Positions 4,210 through 41,659 of a stretch of 42,710 bases of DNA are shown here, piece by piece. Location: the IMG/VR virus record IMGVR_UViG_2667528074_000004, positions 1 through 42,710 of that record. The stretch is one strand, 5' to 3'. Positions within the stretch are counted from its first letter, which is position 1; the number at the start of each line of letters is the position of its first letter. Source of the DNA: a virus (Duplodnaviria > Heunggongvirae > Uroviricota > Caudoviricetes). Under the pieces are notes generated by a model. The model saw nothing but the letters and a program-made list of their open reading frames with translations, was not told the DNA's origin and ran no database searches. Position numbers and translations under genes: made by a program.

Positions 4210-5191
4210 TATTCTGTTGCGCCTCTGTTCTTTGTTCCGCTGTTCTGGCGGCAATACATATTGAGTGCCATGAACCATTTGGCATCCATGATGATAATTC
4301 ATGCCGAACGGAGGTTAACTTATACCTTCCGCTTGCATGTGGTAGTTCTGTTTTGATATCCACATATCTTCCAATGCAAAGGAGAGATGAATATTGCGTC
4401 TGAAACATCAGTCCCCCATTTGAAAATACAGGATATCCAACAAGTCCGTATTCTCTGGATATAAACGGAATTACATCGTCTCTGTTTTTTTCTGAAGGCC
4501 AGAACTCTACTTTTGTCGGTGGCGTAGCTGACATCGCCAGTCCATAATCTGAACAGACCCTATAAAGTTGCTCAAAAACACTTCCTTCAAAATGCGGACT
4601 TCCTGATGTTGTCATCCCTTTTACATTATTAAACACAGCTTCATAACCTGCACTTGCACAAATGGATGAGATGACATCTTCAACACTTTGCGCCCCCTGC
4701 GCTGTAAACGGGCTTGCTGGCATGTTCTGTAAATCAACATTAGAAGAGGCTGTTATCATCAGACTGCTTTCAGGAGCAGAATTCATGTTTGCTATTGATG
4801 AAAGCATCGTGCCGGAGAAAACAAGAGAATCATCAGCAAATACCTCAACATTTAACTTCTGACCTTCCCCAACAATACCATCAGCCTTCCCTGATATATC
4901 AGCAAGTCTTTCGATTCCTAACCCGTAAAGAGATATATCAGCCTGAGCACCTCCCCGACCGGTAACAAAGTTCAGGGATACTGTTGACTTAACATTTCTG
5001 ATGGAGATTTTATTGTTCCCATTTTTATCAAATGCTGATGATTCATTCGTGAAGTCAAACCGAAGACTGTGATTTTTATACAAGCTCGTTTTCCTCGATG
5101 TAATACAGCAAGTAACGGCTACCCAAACCTTCCCATCGCGGGTCCGATTCCCCATCATTATCAATGAAAATAAGGTCTCCCTTAAATCCAA
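4202..5191 (-). CDS. Baseplate/tail protein (Mu gp44-like); start uncertain
   Basis: 329-aa ORF; its 5-prime end overlaps ORF 5076-5378 so the true start may be internal. Confidence 0.45.
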   Translation of the reverse strand: MDLRETLFSLIMMGNRTRDGKVWVAVTCCITSRKTSLYKNHSLRFDFTNESSAFDKNGNNKISIRNVKSTVSLNFVTGRGGAQADISLYGLGIERLADISGKADGIVGEGQKLNVEVFADDSLVFSGTMLSSIANMNSAPESSLMITASSNVDLQNMPASPFTAQGAQSVEDVISSICASAGYEAVFNNVKGMTTSGSPHFEGSVFEQLYRVCSDYGLAMSATPPTKVEFWPSEKNRDDVIPFISREYGLVGYPVFSNGGLMFQTQYSSLLCIGRYVDIKTELPHASGRYKLTSVRHELSSWMPNGSWHSICIAARTAEQRTEAQQNNG

Positions 5192-36304: not shown

Positions 36305-36475
36305 ATGTCACTTGCAACCACAGTGAAGGAGAGCAAGTTACAGAGACGCATGTACACGCAGAAAGCTCTCTGGTATCGCCATAATGGTGACCGCGAAGGA
36401 ATGCGGGTATGCCTTAATTTGTCCCGAGTAGAAGTATTAAATCAGCGTTATTTCCTTGGGCCATGTCCATTCTGA
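36305..36475 (+). CDS. Small protein upstream of erf (Arf-like position)
   Basis: 56-aa ORF with strong SD GAAGGAGAT; alternative overlapping ORF 36226-36384 (52 aa, ATGA-coupled to kil) cannot be excluded. Confidence 0.35.
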   Translation: MSLATTVKESKLQRRMYTQKALWYRHNGDREGMRVCLNLSRVEVLNQRYFLGPCPF

Positions 36476-36485
36476 GAACAATCAT

Positions 36486-37091
36486 ATGAGCAAAGAATTT
36501 TACGCAAGACTGGCAGCTATTCAGGAGAATCTGAACGCGCCAAAGAATCAATACAACTCATTCGGCAAATATAAATACAGAAGCTGCGAAGACATTCTTG
36601 AGGGTGTTAAGCCGTTACTGAATGGCCTGTTTTTATCAATCAGCGATGAAGTTGTGTTGATTGGTGATCGGTATTACGTGAAAGCCACGGCAACTATTAC
36701 CGATGGCGAAAACAGTCATACGGCAACCGCTCTTGCACGAGAGGAAGAAAGCAAGAAAGGAATGGATTCTGCACAAGTTACGGGAGCTACAAGCTCTTAT
36801 GCACGCAAGTATTGCCTCAATGGTTTGTTCGGCATTGATGATGCGAAAGATGCAGATACCGACGAGCATAAACATCAGCAGAACGCAGCAGCAAAGCAAT
36901 CAAAGCCATCACCTACATCTGAACAGGTTCTAAAAGCATTCACTGACGCAGCAATGCAGAAAAACACCGTAGAAGAGCTTAAACAGGCGTTCGCCAAAGC
37001 GTGGAAGATGCTCGAAGGCACACCGGAGCAGCACAAAGCGCAGGACGTTTACAACATCAGACGAGACGAATTAGAAGGAGCTGCTGCTTAA
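36486..37091 (+). CDS. erf: Erf single-strand annealing recombinase (P22 Erf-like)
   Basis: Start MSKEFYARLAAIQENLNAPKNQYNSFGKYKYRSCEDILEGVKPLL matches P22 Erf as recalled. Confidence 0.85.
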   Translation: MSKEFYARLAAIQENLNAPKNQYNSFGKYKYRSCEDILEGVKPLLNGLFLSISDEVVLIGDRYYVKATATITDGENSHTATALAREEESKKGMDSAQVTGATSSYARKYCLNGLFGIDDAKDADTDEHKHQQNAAAKQSKPSPTSEQVLKAFTDAAMQKNTVEELKQAFAKAWKMLEGTPEQHKAQDVYNIRRDELEGAAA

Positions 37092-37474
37092 TGGCACATT
37101 CGATTACTGTAAGACTAAACAAGCCCGCAAGAGAGTTTCAGGCCGGGGAAAATATCGGATTCAACATCCGTGCTGGCGTTCAGTATTACGATCGCCAGAC
37201 AAAAAAGAAAGAATGGACAAACTACAGCGCCGTTGTATTTGCCAAGCCGGGAGCGCAAGCGGATTACTACCGTAGCGTTCTGGTTGAAGGAGGCATTGTA
37301 GAAATTACCGGAGAAAACATCAGGGTTGATGTTTATCAGGGGCAAAATGGTCAATCAATCACTCTTGAATTACTGAATGCAAAGATTGGATTTGCAACCT
37401 CAGGAAACAGCCAACAGCAGCAAAGTAGCAATCATCAAAATCATCCTGAATACGACGATTCAATTCCCTTCTAA
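37091..37474 (+). CDS. Small SSB-like protein with SSB C-terminal tip motif
   Basis: 127-aa ORF, TAATG-coupled to erf; ends ...QQQQSSNHQNHPEYDDSIPF resembling the E. coli SSB tail ...DDDIPF. Confidence 0.5.
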   Translation: MAHSITVRLNKPAREFQAGENIGFNIRAGVQYYDRQTKKKEWTNYSAVVFAKPGAQADYYRSVLVEGGIVEITGENIRVDVYQGQNGQSITLELLNAKIGFATSGNSQQQQSSNHQNHPEYDDSIPF

Positions 37475-37497
37475 ATTAGCAAAATAAGGATTCCATT

Positions 37498-37791
37498 ATG
37501 CCAGCGCCTCAGTATGGTGCGGATGACCCGCGCCGCTGTTCCGGCAATTCCGTATCGGAGGTGCTGGATAAATTCAGAAAAAACTACGACCGGATAATGT
37601 CGCTACAGCAGGAAACGAAAGAGGAAAAGGAATTTCGCCACTGTATATGGCTTGCAGAGAAAGAAGAACGCGAGCGAATTTACCAGACATCAATCCGACC
37701 ATTCCGCAAAGCCACATATACCCACTTCCCTGAAATTGACCCGCGCCTGCGTAATTACCGCTCACGCTATGGCGCTATCAGTAATGACTGA
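37498..37791 (+). CDS. abc2: Abc2-like anti-RecBCD protein
   Basis: 97-aa ORF downstream of erf as in P22; size and context; sequence match recalled only approximately. Confidence 0.45.
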
Positions 37792-37801
37792 GGAATTTAC
37801 C

Positions 37802-37966
37802 ATGAGAGGACTTACATACAATCCCGGCATTCTTCCGGCAGAAATGATTATTCGCCAACGCGTAAAGCCAATGCCATCGAGAGAGGAATTTCTCAAGAGA
37901 AATTCTTTTCCATCAGTAAATCAAAACAAATATCTGAATGCGATGTGGCGGAGTGGGAAGAAATGA
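37802..37966 (+). CDS. Hypothetical small protein
   Basis: 54-aa ORF, ATGA-coupled to next gene. Confidence 0.3.
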
Positions 37967-38424
37967 AACAAATGTCACTAATTGAGATGGATGGTTTTCT
38001 GAAAGGTAAATGCATCCCACGAGATTTAAAGGTTAACGAAACAAACGCTGAATATCTGGTGCGTAAATTTGCTGAATCAGAGGCCAAGTGCGCGGCACTG
38101 GCAGCGGAGAATGCGGGGCTGAAGTCTGGCGCTATGGACGAAATCAAGGTTATCAACCGTGGAGGGCAGGCATATTGCGTAAAAGATGGAGTGCAAGTTA
38201 ATCCCATGTATGCAAGAGGGTGGAATGACTATCGCGCAAAGTATATACAATCAGACACCCCAGCCACCGATGCTTTCCTGACTGAAATTGAATGCAAAGC
38301 AATCCGAAAGTTCATTAACAGCATTGAGCACATCCTGCGTGACAAGCTGTCTCCGTATGACACCGAAGAGATGCTTGAGGCTATGCGTATTTTTCTGGAA
38401 GAACAGGGAGGTGAGCAAAAATGA
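37963..38424 (+). CDS. Hypothetical protein
   Basis: Start [11 protein letters not shown]... overlapping previous stop. Confidence 0.4.
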
Positions 38425-38738
38425 CGATCACAAAACAACGTGTAGAAGAAATCATATCCCGCATTGAAATGTATGGGCATGGTGCCGGGTATACCGCTGA
38501 CGAGGTTTATAACCTTGCTGTACTGGCGCTGAATTTATCAAATATCGCAAAACTCAAGCGATACGAGCTTGATATGGATGGTTGTGACTCGTTCGGTCAG
38601 GATTGTGGCGCTGACATGACTGAAGATTCTGATGGCGATTATGTCCTGTTTGATGACGTGGTTAAGTTGCTTGAGTTTGATACAACCACTCAGAAGTTCG
38701 AAAGCCCAGCAAAGGAGGCAGCCAGTGAGCAAGATTGA
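38421..38738 (+). CDS. Hypothetical highly acidic protein
   Basis: 105-aa ORF, ATGA-coupled; Asp/Glu-rich C-terminal half (DMDGCDSFGQDCGADMTEDSDGDYVLFDDVV). Confidence 0.45.
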   Translation: MTITKQRVEEIISRIEMYGHGAGYTADEVYNLAVLALNLSNIAKLKRYELDMDGCDSFGQDCGADMTEDSDGDYVLFDDVVKLLEFDTTTQKFESPAKEAASEQD

Positions 38739-39168
38739 TTATCAAAAGCTTCGTGAAATCGCTGAAAAAACAAAAATTGCTGGTGAAGCACCTGTAATGC
38801 CTTTCGATCAGCGAATTAATGCGCTTAACGATTTTATGAAGCACTTTTCGCCAGATATCGCGCTGGCATTGTTGGATGAATGGGAAAGAAACCAGCAATA
38901 CATAAAACGCCGCGATCAGGAGAACGAGGATATTGCGCTAACGGTAGGGAAGCTGCGCGTTGAGCTTGAAGCAGAAAAACAGCGGGCAAAGGTTCTATTT
39001 ATGGAAAATGCTCGGCTTAAGTCAGGCATAGCCGGTCTGATACACCTCGGTATTCGATATGCAGATGTTGAGGTCATGAAAATTGCTGGAGATGCCCAGC
39101 TTTCTACCCCATGCACTGACAGCATCATAAACAGCATTGCAACAGGCATTCGCATCAAAGGAGAGTGA
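38725..39168 (+). CDS. Hypothetical protein (GTG start)
   Basis: SD AGGAGG 6 nt upstream of GTG 38725 (VSKIDYQKLREIAEK...); longer ATG-started track ORF would overlap neighbour by about 100 nt. Confidence 0.4.
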   Translation: MSKIDYQKLREIAEKTKIAGEAPVMPFDQRINALNDFMKHFSPDIALALLDEWERNQQYIKRRDQENEDIALTVGKLRVELEAEKQRAKVLFMENARLKSGIAGLIHLGIRYADVEVMKIAGDAQLSTPCTDSIINSIATGIRIKGE

Positions 39169-39169
39169 T

Positions 39170-39745
39170 ATGACCACTATTACCAAAGAGCGACTACTGA
39201 CAATCAAGGAGTGGCGCGAAACATACGGACCTGGTAGCAACGTTGTACTGCCAGCAGAAGAAGCGGAAGAGCTGGCACGAATTGCGCTGGCATCACTGGA
39301 AGCCGAACCGGTTGCAGTAAACGACGACATGGCTTACGCATTCCATCACGCATTGTCAGATTCATCGCCAGGCGCTGATGAAGTAGAGGAAATTAAGGCA
39401 GGGCTGCGTGCTGCCTTTGCCAACGTTACCGCCCAACCAGCTTCGGTAGTGCCGGAAGCAGAACCGGTGGCATGGACTGATGAAGAGGAACTGCGCGATG
39501 TCAAGCGGTATGGTCTCGGTGAGATATTTCAGTGCCCGCCAGATAAATACGCAGACTCGCGTCGTGTAATTCCGCTGTATCGTGTGCCGCCAGCTTCCAT
39601 AGTGCAGGCACAAGGTATCGAAATCGCAATAAACGAACTGGTTGCTCTGTCCCCGCGGCTGGATAAACGAGCGGCGGAAACTCTTTCTATGGCTGTGGCA
39701 CAGCTACGCAAACTGGTTAAGAAGCAGTTGCAAGCAAAGGACTAA
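39170..39745 (+). CDS. Hypothetical protein, paralogous N-terminal region with next gene
   Basis: Start MTTITKERL...; shares IALASLEAEPVA and PASVVP motifs with ORF 39749-40438. Confidence 0.45.
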   Translation: MTTITKERLLTIKEWRETYGPGSNVVLPAEEAEELARIALASLEAEPVAVNDDMAYAFHHALSDSSPGADEVEEIKAGLRAAFANVTAQPASVVPEAEPVAWTDEEELRDVKRYGLGEIFQCPPDKYADSRRVIPLYRVPPASIVQAQGIEIAINELVALSPRLDKRAAETLSMAVAQLRKLVKKQLQAKD

Positions 39746-39748
39746 CAC

Positions 39749-40438
39749 ATGACTACTTTTACCGACAAAGAACTGATTAAAGAAATCAAAGAGCGTATCA
39801 GCAGCCTGGACGTTCGAGACAATATTGAACGCCGGGCTTATGAAATTGCACTGGCATCGCTGGAAGCAGATCCAGTTGCTTATATTTTCAAACATCCGGC
39901 CGGGAAATTATTCTGGGCTTTAACGGATGAAAGCAATAAAGAGCAACCGGACGTTATTCCTGTTTATGCTGCCGCGCCTGCGTCGGTTGTGCCGGATAAT
40001 GCATCAGAGCCTCTTGCTTATGCTTACAAAGAGCTTACGCCTGAGATTATGCGCAACCAGGCTGCCGAATCCAATCGCGGTAATGAGTGGACCGGCAATC
40101 CTGATATTGATAACGCCATCATCATGCTCGACCGCATAGATACGCTGGAAAATTGCGATGATGACCGTATTGAGGCTGTTAAGGCTGTTTTGCGTAGACT
40201 GGCTGGCAACTCTCCGGTAACTCCGGATGGTTGGATAAGCTGTAGTGAGCGAATGCCGGATAGCAAAACAGCCGTTCTTGTTGCCAGGGAGTTTGACAGG
40301 AAAGGTGACTGGCGAATGAAATGGGCGACTTACATCCCGGGGCATCCTGACGCTAATGATGGGTGGATAATTCCAGGTGCGTCGTGGATACCATCACACT
40401 GGATGCCGCTACCAGAACCGCCGCAGGAGGCGAAATGA
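39749..40438 (+). CDS. Hypothetical protein with DUF551-like C-terminal domain
   Basis: 229-aa ORF; C-terminus DGWISCSERMPDS...W...W resembles DUF551 of enterobacterial prophages. Confidence 0.45.
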   Translation: MTTFTDKELIKEIKERISSLDVRDNIERRAYEIALASLEADPVAYIFKHPAGKLFWALTDESNKEQPDVIPVYAAAPASVVPDNASEPLAYAYKELTPEIMRNQAAESNRGNEWTGNPDIDNAIIMLDRIDTLENCDDDRIEAVKAVLRRLAGNSPVTPDGWISCSERMPDSKTAVLVAREFDRKGDWRMKWATYIPGHPDANDGWIIPGASWIPSHWMPLPEPPQEAK

Positions 40439-40695
40439 TGGATGTAAAAGAGAAGGTTTTGCAGGTGATGCGTTCCCGGGCTGCCCTGCAAGATAAAGCT
40501 CTCGGCGGGGAATATCCATTCAGGATGGCAACCTGGAATTTGCGGTTGGCAATGGAGAAGGAATTTCCTGATGAAGAATGGCGTTCGGCAGATTTGCGCA
40601 AAATTCTTATGGAGATGGCTAAAGACGGAACAGTATCCAAAGATACCCATGCCAGCCGGATTGGTCAGGCGGTATGGAGACTGGAGGTGAGGTAA
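40435..40695 (+). CDS. Hypothetical protein
   Basis: 86-aa ORF, SD AGGAGG, ATGA-coupled. Confidence 0.4.
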   Translation: MMDVKEKVLQVMRSRAALQDKALGGEYPFRMATWNLRLAMEKEFPDEEWRSADLRKILMEMAKDGTVSKDTHASRIGQAVWRLEVR

Positions 40696-40979
40696 TGGCT
40701 AACCTGCAACTTGCCGTCAAAGGTGAATACTTCGATGCCATGATTCGCGGAGAGAAAACGGAAGAGTATCGCCTGTGTAATGACTACTGGAATAAGCGAA
40801 TTATGTTCCGGGAGTATGACCGCCTGATTATCACAAAGGGATATCCGAAGCGCGACGATTCCAGCCGCAGAATTGACGTCACGTATGACGGTTATGAAAT
40901 CAAGACAATCACACATCCGCACTTCGGTGATAAACCGGTAAAGGTGTTCGCGATAAAGGTGAATATCGGCAATGAATAA
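40695..40979 (+). CDS. Hypothetical protein
   Basis: 94-aa ORF (MANLQLAVKGEYFD...), SD GGAGGTGAGG, TAATG-coupled. Confidence 0.4.
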   Translation: MANLQLAVKGEYFDAMIRGEKTEEYRLCNDYWNKRIMFREYDRLIITKGYPKRDDSSRRIDVTYDGYEIKTITHPHFGDKPVKVFAIKVNIGNE

Positions 40980-41440: not shown

Positions 41441-41659
41441 ATGTACTTGACTCTTCAGGAGTGGAACGCACGCCAGCGGCGCCCAAGAAGCCTTGAAACA
41501 GTTCGTCGATGGGTACGCGAGTGCAGGATATTCCCTCCTCCGGTTAAAGATGGAAGAGAGTATCTGTTCCACGAATCAGCGGTAAAGGTTGACTTAAATC
41601 GACCAATAACAGGTAGCCTTTTGAAGAGGATCAGAAATGGGAAGAAGGCGAAGTCATGA
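41441..41659 (+). CDS. xis: Excisionase Xis (lambda-type)
   Basis: 72-aa ORF MYLTLQEWNARQRRPRSLETVRRWVRECRIFPPPVKDGREYLFHESAVKVDLNRPIT... matches lambda Xis as recalled. Confidence 0.9.
   Translation: MYLTLQEWNARQRRPRSLETVRRWVRECRIFPPPVKDGREYLFHESAVKVDLNRPITGSLLKRIRNGKKAKS

Follow-up and report, generated by a model that had tools for sequence, protein, structure and literature searches.

The window considered here is the complete 42,710-nucleotide stretch of the Caudoviricetes record IMGVR_UViG_2667528074_000004 (IMG/VR). On its plus strand, positions 38421 to 38738 hold an ORF of 105 codons that starts with ATG, ends with TGA and encodes a protein of 105 aa assigned to phrog_3126. We identified genes for recombination on one side of this ORF, namely Erf (36456-37091; PF04404), SSB (37091-37474; phrog_44) and Abc2 (37498-37791; PF11043), the anti-RecBCD gene abc2 lying 630 bp upstream. 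On the far side of the accessory block are Xis (41441-41659; PF07825) and a lambda-type Int (41637 onward). The ORF thus lies between the recombination genes and xis, as the original prediction had placed it.

The signals for translation can be read directly from the DNA. A ribosome-binding site, GGAGG (38407-38411), is followed by a 9-nt spacer and the ATG (38407-38424 in all, plus strand), and this start codon overlaps the TGA of the upstream ORF in an ATGA at 38421-38424. At the other end, AGGAGG (38713-38718) and a GTG start at 38725 belong to the downstream gene, which shares 14 nt with the acidic ORF. Given the ATGA overlap with its GGAGG on one side and the overlapping AGGAGG and GTG on the other, the earlier claim of translational coupling to the neighbors is correct. 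The upstream coupled gene (37945-38424, plus strand; phrog_614) is an Ead-like mosaic encoding a coiled coil, a PATDAFLxE linker and a C-terminal module. The downstream gene (38725-39168, plus strand) is Ead/Ea22-like (PF13935, E 9.8e-23). An Rfam search over positions 37000-40500 at E up to 1 returned zero matches, and a promoter and terminator scan around the acidic ORF found nothing exceeding the shuffled expectation. Thus, we infer that the ORF is a protein-coding member of an early operon. It counts among the early accessory genes of a prophage of lambdoid or P22-like type.

The encoded protein has a net charge of -14.4 at pH 7 and a pI of 4.16 (23 Asp and Glu versus 9 Lys and Arg), and is the most acidic among the 55 plus-strand, ATG-started ORFs of at least 60 aa in the window. 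The stretch that had been singled out as dominated by Asp and Glu, ELDMDGCDSFGQDCGADMTEDSDGDYVLFDDVV, is present, with Asp or Glu at 12 of 33 positions and zero Lys, Arg or His; the description of the product as small and strongly acidic agrees with its calculated pI and charge. Close homologues (90 clusters) have pI values of 4.05-4.59 and net charges of -9 to -17. The whole-gene dN/dS is 0.27 (NG86; 25 distinct 105-codon alleles). The acidic ORF is therefore a genuine conserved gene under purifying selection, and no chance feature.

No homologue of the protein had been recognised when it was first noted, a statement that did not survive database searches. The protein matches phrog_3126 with E 1.5e-66, residues 1-105 aligning onto profile positions 1-105 of 105, and belongs to this family without any difference from it; phrog_3126 carries no functional annotation. 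A protein search returned 264 homologous clusters, in which every source name is 'hypothetical protein'. The gene is present in 533 of 5426 complete E. coli genomes (megablast) and in 66 phage records (tblastn), including IME10, Sf101, Stx2c phages, PhiR12 phages and many Salmonella siphoviruses. A 100% identical CDS occurs in a prophage of E. coli FJ_Ec_21, adjoining ybhC (WP_057697616.1, hypothetical protein). Start codon, reading frame and ribosome-binding site are kept in hundreds of genomes and several phage groups, and allele lengths range from 94 to 278 aa. A tblastn search of phage records with a divergent variant (P0220) gave no match, and a literature search on phrog_3126, ChristineMuster and Bas80 yielded nothing relevant.

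In most of the 66 related loci, the upstream ORF is similar to that of the window (31-99% identity by BLASTP) and the 4-nt ATGA overlap is kept. The upstream proteins are mosaics: their N-terminus varies, a coiled coil and a PATDAFLAE linker follow, and the C-terminal module is one of several alternatives. They are thus no fixed partner of the acidic protein. We considered a specific partnership with the upstream gene and dropped it, as the upstream ORF is variable and only its last few codons, which hold the ribosome-binding site of the acidic gene, are constant. The gene that follows the acidic ORF also varies among these loci and is often Ea22-like with the 14-nt overlap. The two-gene cassette of an Ead-like gene and the acidic gene, joined by the ATGA overlap, was also identified in Bas80 and in Salmonella phage ViII-E1 (Macdonaldcampvirus). 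Integrase and excisionase are absent among the 84 annotated features of ViII-E1, which speaks against a role that depends on integration or lysogeny. In general, gene neighborhood in phage early regions is a weak clue to function.

When 1.84 billion cluster representatives were searched with a profile, 113 matched, many of them over residues 1-38 alone or residues 41-84 alone. Because so many matches cover just one part, we divide the protein into two separable modules, A and B, followed by a tail. Module A (residues 1-40; 38421-38540, plus strand) is predicted by AF2 to form a helical hairpin (residues 5-21 and 26-43) with a conserved loop, RIEMYGHGAGYT. It is the most constrained part of the protein (dN/dS 0.12, NG86) and, according to the profile search, heads many otherwise different proteins, DUF551-type proteins included; many products of the ea region have this N-terminal module in common. 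Two such genes lie nearby on the plus strand. The gene at 39170-39745 encodes a module A paralogue at its N-terminus (MTTITKERLLTIKEWRETYGPGS...), with 42% identity over 38 aa to module A (BLASTP, E 2e-4). The gene at 39749-40438 is a DUF551 gene with a module-A-like N-terminus (MTTFTDKELIKEIKERI...). Direct BLASTP produced no alignment between the acidic protein and this DUF551 protein; it is linked to module A by its N-terminal pattern and by matches to phrog_3323, which are common to the acidic ORF and both of these neighbors.

Module B (residues 41-84; 38541-38672, plus strand), IAKLKRYELDMDGCDSFGQDCGADMTEDSDGDYVLFDDVVKLL, is an acidic mini-domain with a net charge of -8 and a dN/dS of 0.29 (NG86). 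Its signature consists of RY[DE]L, a Cys loop and E[DE]xDG[DE]YVxFx[DE]V, the last part reading EDxDGDYVxFDDV in the acidic ORF. In the model, a strand (47-51) is followed by the Cys loop (52-64, with C55 and C62), a second strand (65-68) and a helix (77-83), with block-mean pLDDT values of 67-85 (AF2). R47, D56, C62 and G72 are invariant in a 41-sequence set. The divergent carriers of the module match phrog_3126 at profile positions of roughly 28-85, and in 52 of them its net charge is -4 to -11, mostly -8 to -10, with frequent interchange of Asp and Glu. The property that is conserved in module B is its negative charge. We rejected an EF-hand-like calcium loop in DSDGDYVLFDD, as homologues differ at its positions (EEPDGDY, EDLDGEY) and Pfam gave no match. 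Mimicry of the SSB C-terminal tail was also rejected, as the motif is internal and away from the C-terminus.

The tail (residues 85-105; 38673-38738, plus strand) shows low model confidence and a dN/dS of 0.90 (NG86). The block-mean pLDDT is 62 for residues 81-90, and each of residues 91-105 is below 50. Longer alleles are collinear with the DNA of the acidic ORF through CCCAGC (38705-38710) and diverge at 38711. The tail is thus encoded across a recombination junction and across the AGGAGG and GTG start of the downstream gene, and is essentially unconstrained, a by-product of the way in which the ORF joins the next gene. In other phages, the tail position runs into the PATDAFLAE linker and another C-terminal module (alleles of 148-205 aa, that of Sf101 included). 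Natural fusions of the acidic protein to an Ea22-like protein also occur (P0121, of 278 aa, and P0137). Taken as a whole, the acidic ORF protein consists of two portable modules from an Ead/Ea22/DUF551-type mosaic pool plus this tail.

With 20 close homologues the pLDDT of the AF2 model was 54, and with 41 diverse sequences the model was of moderate confidence, with a mean pLDDT of 70 and a pTM of 0.40. Scans of Pfam (E up to 0.1), NCBIfam and PADLOC returned nothing for the acidic ORF. Among PDB sequences, neither the single sequence nor the module B profile found more than chance matches (E at least 1.4), and Foldseek with the moderate-confidence model matched nothing in PDB (best E 6.6, TM-scores of at most 0.26). 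Foldseek against BFVD gave weak matches (best E 0.019) that pointed to orf14 of Pectobacterium phage PP90.

PP90 is a virulent podovirus, and its orf14, located between the genes for primase and helicase, encodes an acidic protein of 61 aa. In Foldseek against BFVD this protein had a probability of 0.96 at a non-significant E of 0.18, and comparison of the module B profile with orf14 (hhalign) gave a probability of 94.8% and E 5e-8, with 43% identity over 42 columns. We identified relatives of orf14 in Phapecoctavirus and other virulent phages, inside arrays of small early genes. Like module B, orf14 and its relatives of about 60-90 aa have the core RY[DE]L ... C ... EEDxxGD[YF]V.[FY]ED..L; they are acidic and occur in early or replication gene blocks. 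They differ from the acidic ORF in lacking module A and in having one Cys instead of the two-Cys loop. An alignment across all these proteins leaves a core of RY[DE]h ... C ... E[DE]xxG[DE][YF][VL]...D[VY]..L. One GenBank record labels orf14 as a 'single-stranded DNA binding protein', a name that we found unsupported and that RefSeq replaces with hypothetical.

Module B is carried in several other contexts. It is the C-terminal cargo of coiled-coil proteins such as P0148, P0152, P0158, P0159 and P0169, and three members of alignment A3 match PF13935. In P0211 and P0215, module B follows a domain that resembles the ASCH type by eye. Standalone module B proteins of 53-77 aa (P0185, P0217) are encoded near helicase, VapE-primase, Pyr_excise and exonuclease genes, and in Aeromonas phage AeroV_348 a module B protein is encoded downstream of a primase/helicase gene. 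A protein search with a 46-column module B profile recovered 12 short proteins. Phages of Enterobacteriaceae and Aeromonas account for most occurrences of the two-Cys-loop form. The degenerate DNA pattern for CDS[CF]GQDCGA[DE]M was found in three species-representative genomes, two of Aeromonas and one Novosphingobium assembly; in the latter, the match sits on a contig at 0.9x coverage. The Pfam scan showed no family covering the core, and module B is a portable acidic mini-domain described by no domain library.

The only studied member of the surrounding gene pool is Ea22, a tetrameric protein at full length (PMC10834534, PMC7093339) that is reported to be pro-lysogenic and to modulate the lysis-lysogeny decision by an unknown mechanism (PMC7093339, PMC10834534). 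In this family, an N-terminal segment is followed by a coiled coil, which takes up more than half of the Ead/Ea22-type protein, and by C-terminal domains that can be exchanged and are 'predominantly acidic' whatever their sequence (PMC10834534). Genes of the exo-xis or ea region are among the earliest transcribed (PMC10834534). The acidic ORF shares with Ea22 its niche between the recombination genes and xis, the mosaic organization of its modules and the acidic terminal domain. In addition, Ea22-type coiled-coil proteins carry module B as their C-terminal domain, and fusions with the whole acidic protein occur. However, the acidic protein has no match to the Ead/Ea22 profile (PF13935) at E up to 0.1 and lacks the central coiled coil. 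Its AF2 model shows a hairpin of two 17-18-residue helices and then strands, with no long coil, and its length is 105 aa versus 182 aa for lambda Ea22. The C-terminal domain of lambda Ea22, for which a structure is available in PDB, is unrelated in sequence to module B, and no match between them was found. Thus, the acidic ORF lies outside PF13935, yet draws on the same pool of modules, and among described groups this mosaic family comes nearest to it.

The most likely reading, which we favor tentatively, is that the acidic ORF encodes an early accessory factor that binds a host protein via module B. Module B would be the working part, its conserved negative patch binding a positive surface of a host or phage protein. 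The target would probably be a nucleic-acid-binding protein, bound early in infection. Module A may act as a docking or oligomerising handle, a purely inferred role that would parallel that of the coiled coil on Ea22-like carriers of module B. The product would be a stoichiometric binder or sequestering factor and no enzyme, and its role may not be tied to integration or lysogeny. The binder model is supported by the fact that charge is what the divergent carriers of module B and the close homologues keep. It agrees with the lack of any catalytic or known domain in Pfam, NCBIfam, PADLOC, PDB sequences and Foldseek against PDB. Other considerations count against the binder model. Conservation of an acidic segment would also be seen in a metal site or a disordered linker, and the only functional data for this gene pool, those for Ea22, point to modulation of lysis versus lysogeny.

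In another reading, possible if somewhat unlikely, the acidic protein would be a partner or detached head of the adjacent Ea22-like protein and would bias lysis versus lysogeny or induction. It would fit the coupling on both sides (Ead-like gene upstream, Ead/Ea22-like gene downstream), the natural fusions to Ea22-like proteins (P0121, P0137), the replacement of the C-terminal domain by module B on Ea22-type coiled-coil scaffolds, and the reported pro-lysogenic effect of Ea22 (PMC7093339, PMC10834534). However, a phage without annotated integrase or excisionase also has the cassette, and virulent phages encode simpler relatives. Furthermore, this reading names a phenotype and no mechanism, as the mechanism of Ea22 is itself unknown. 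Recombination debris, in which the ORF would be functionless and open merely as fragments of neighboring mosaic genes, agrees with the tail as a junction by-product (dN/dS 0.90) and with alleles of 94 to 278 aa. We consider it highly improbable, given the purifying selection on modules A (0.12) and B (0.29) and a frame, start codon and ribosome-binding site that hundreds of genomes and several phage groups retain. It is also quite unlikely that C55 and C62, together with C58 or a nearby His or Asp and possibly across a dimer, hold zinc or iron as a structural knuckle or redox sensor. Within the Cys-loop subfamily C62 is invariant and C55 nearly so; about 105 sequences have a third Cys (CDSCGQDC), and in the GGHCDSFGQDC group the residue before C55 is His. 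Yet the acidic ORF itself has two Cys (F58 taking the place of the third), as have roughly 70 other sequences, and the wider family of PP90 orf14 and its relatives keeps one. Any one monomer falls short of four ligands, and the searches gave no zinc-ribbon or zinc-knuckle family.

The original prediction had raised the possibility of a DNA mimic of the Ocr or ArdA type, the acidic surface of which would imitate the phosphate backbone and block type I restriction-modification or another DNA-binding defence nuclease. Ocr (T7 gp0.3) and ArdA are, like the acidic ORF product, small, expressed early and encoded among counter-defence genes, and their pI is about 4 (bioRxiv 10.1101/2023.04.06.535777). 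The pI of 4.16 and the charge of -14 over 105 aa are within this quoted range. In addition, the charge is conserved among homologues, the gene is part of an accessory block and has abc2, an anti-RecBCD gene, 630 bp upstream of it, and some distant relatives of module B adjoin DNA methyltransferase genes. Nevertheless, the acidic protein shows no similarity in sequence or fold to any solved structure, Ocr and ArdA included, and has no Ocr or ArdA Pfam match. The fold of Ocr is an elongated helical bundle, whereas the model of the acidic protein comprises a helical hairpin, a beta-hairpin and a helix. As DNA mimics have diverse folds, the missing fold match lowers the case for membership in this group without excluding the mechanism. 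The motif was absent from the supplementary text of two accessory-gene screens, from EVADES and from a structure-guided anti-defence survey, texts that may not list protein sequences. Acidity is a general trait of the Ead/Ea22 gene pool and of Ea22-type domains, which weakens the inference from charge to mimicry. Also, the folded acidic part is just about 40 residues, so mimicry would need oligomerisation. We regard a DNA mimic of this type as possible but improbable, to about the same degree as the metal site. These readings (binder, developmental modulator, mimic, metal site and debris) are not mutually exclusive.

A broader proposal concerns the mini-domain defined by RY[DE]L ... E[DE]xxG[DE]YVxFx[DE]V, which could be an undescribed, widespread phage inhibitor domain. 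It would act as a warhead that mimics nucleic acid or binds a basic surface, directed against a conserved host protein of DNA metabolism or defence. The domain would be deployed in three formats: standalone, in early or replication blocks and in several cases by a helicase or primase gene; with a helical-hairpin handle, as in the acidic ORF; and as cargo on tetrameric Ea22-type coiled coils. We consider this proposal doubtful, and less probable than the developmental role discussed above.

The acidic ORF is an uncharacterised phage accessory gene of an already known kind, and the definition of the mini-domain is a mildly interesting by-product. The protein splits into a shared N-terminal handle and a portable mini-domain, the latter a small, well-defined unit of about 40 residues. 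If the mini-domain has no target, the acidic ORF would be one more conserved hypothetical accessory protein. If it has a defined host target, this would explain the recurrence of acidic terminal domains in the gene pool. The exo-xis or ea region of lambdoid and Shiga-toxin phages influences the lysis-lysogeny decision and induction, and its proteins are without known mechanism. Should the inhibitor-domain reading be true, it would provide the first mechanistic handle on this long-uncharacterised region.

Module shuffling is visible locally in the sequences of three window genes, at 38421, 39170 and 39749 (all + strand). Clear paralogues of an N-terminal helical module (MT(T)ITK[EQ]R...) open the first two genes, and a looser likeness to this module is found in the third, which starts MTTFTDKEL.... 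Beyond it the proteins are unrelated, and continue as an acidic mini-domain, as unknown sequence and as DUF551, respectively. At the 3' end of the 38421 gene, comparison with the related loci L062 and L064 (around 4280-4300) places a recombination breakpoint directly after CCCAGC (38705-38710, within window positions 38700-38740). Past this hexamer there are two kinds of allele, one with PATDAFLAE and another module and one, that of the window, with the ribosome-binding site of the next gene. The PATDAFLAE junction motif also recurs in the upstream gene family.

The upstream gene itself (37945-38424, + strand) has a counterpart in L001, another related locus, at 4543-5004. A protein 95% identical to its product, WP_219362801.1, carries the RefSeq/PGAP name 'hNH endonuclease'. 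No match to an HNH domain, or to any other Pfam or NCBIfam family, was identified in the window protein, which contains a coiled coil and a PATDAFLTE linker and in sequence resembles an Ead-type mosaic. Thus, the name is probably a misannotation.

We identified an SSB-family protein of 127 amino acids (phrog_44) at 37091-37474 (+ strand), for which there was no Pfam SSB match at E values up to 0.01. Its last residues, ...PEYDDSIPF, are similar to the acidic tip of the C-terminal tail in E. coli SSB. In Pectobacterium phage PP90, an acidic protein of 61 amino acids, orf14 (L087, 7766-7951), is encoded between the genes for primase and helicase. GenBank gives orf14 the label 'putative single-stranded DNA binding protein', and RefSeq calls it hypothetical. 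It lacks SSB features; its sequence marks it as a remote homologue of module B, the acidic mini-domain.

In the homologous proteins P0211 and P0215, module B is joined at the C-terminus, and the N-termini look like a putative ASCH-type domain (MKHELKIKPEYFAAV..GEKTFEIRNN). A window ORF at 40674-40979 has a similar-looking start (GEYFDAMIRGEKTEEYR). The only non-gammaproteobacterial genome matched by the DNA pattern for the Cys loop of module B was Novosphingobium silvae (L091, NZ_WVTD01000063.1). Given the small size (1000 bp) and very low coverage (0.9) of this contig, the match is probably contamination rather than a true alphaproteobacterial occurrence.

The cassette of an Ead-like gene and the acidic gene (38421 in the window) was also found in Salmonella phage ViII-E1 (L084, 42940-43700; VIP0050/VIP0051), where VIP0050 itself opens with the mini-domain in degenerate form (SEVKRYDLVGYMDGNC...DDGVYVKHKDY), and in Bas80 (L082, 3028-3848). 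These are siphoviruses of ~45-47 kb that lack an annotated integrase, into which the cassette has moved.
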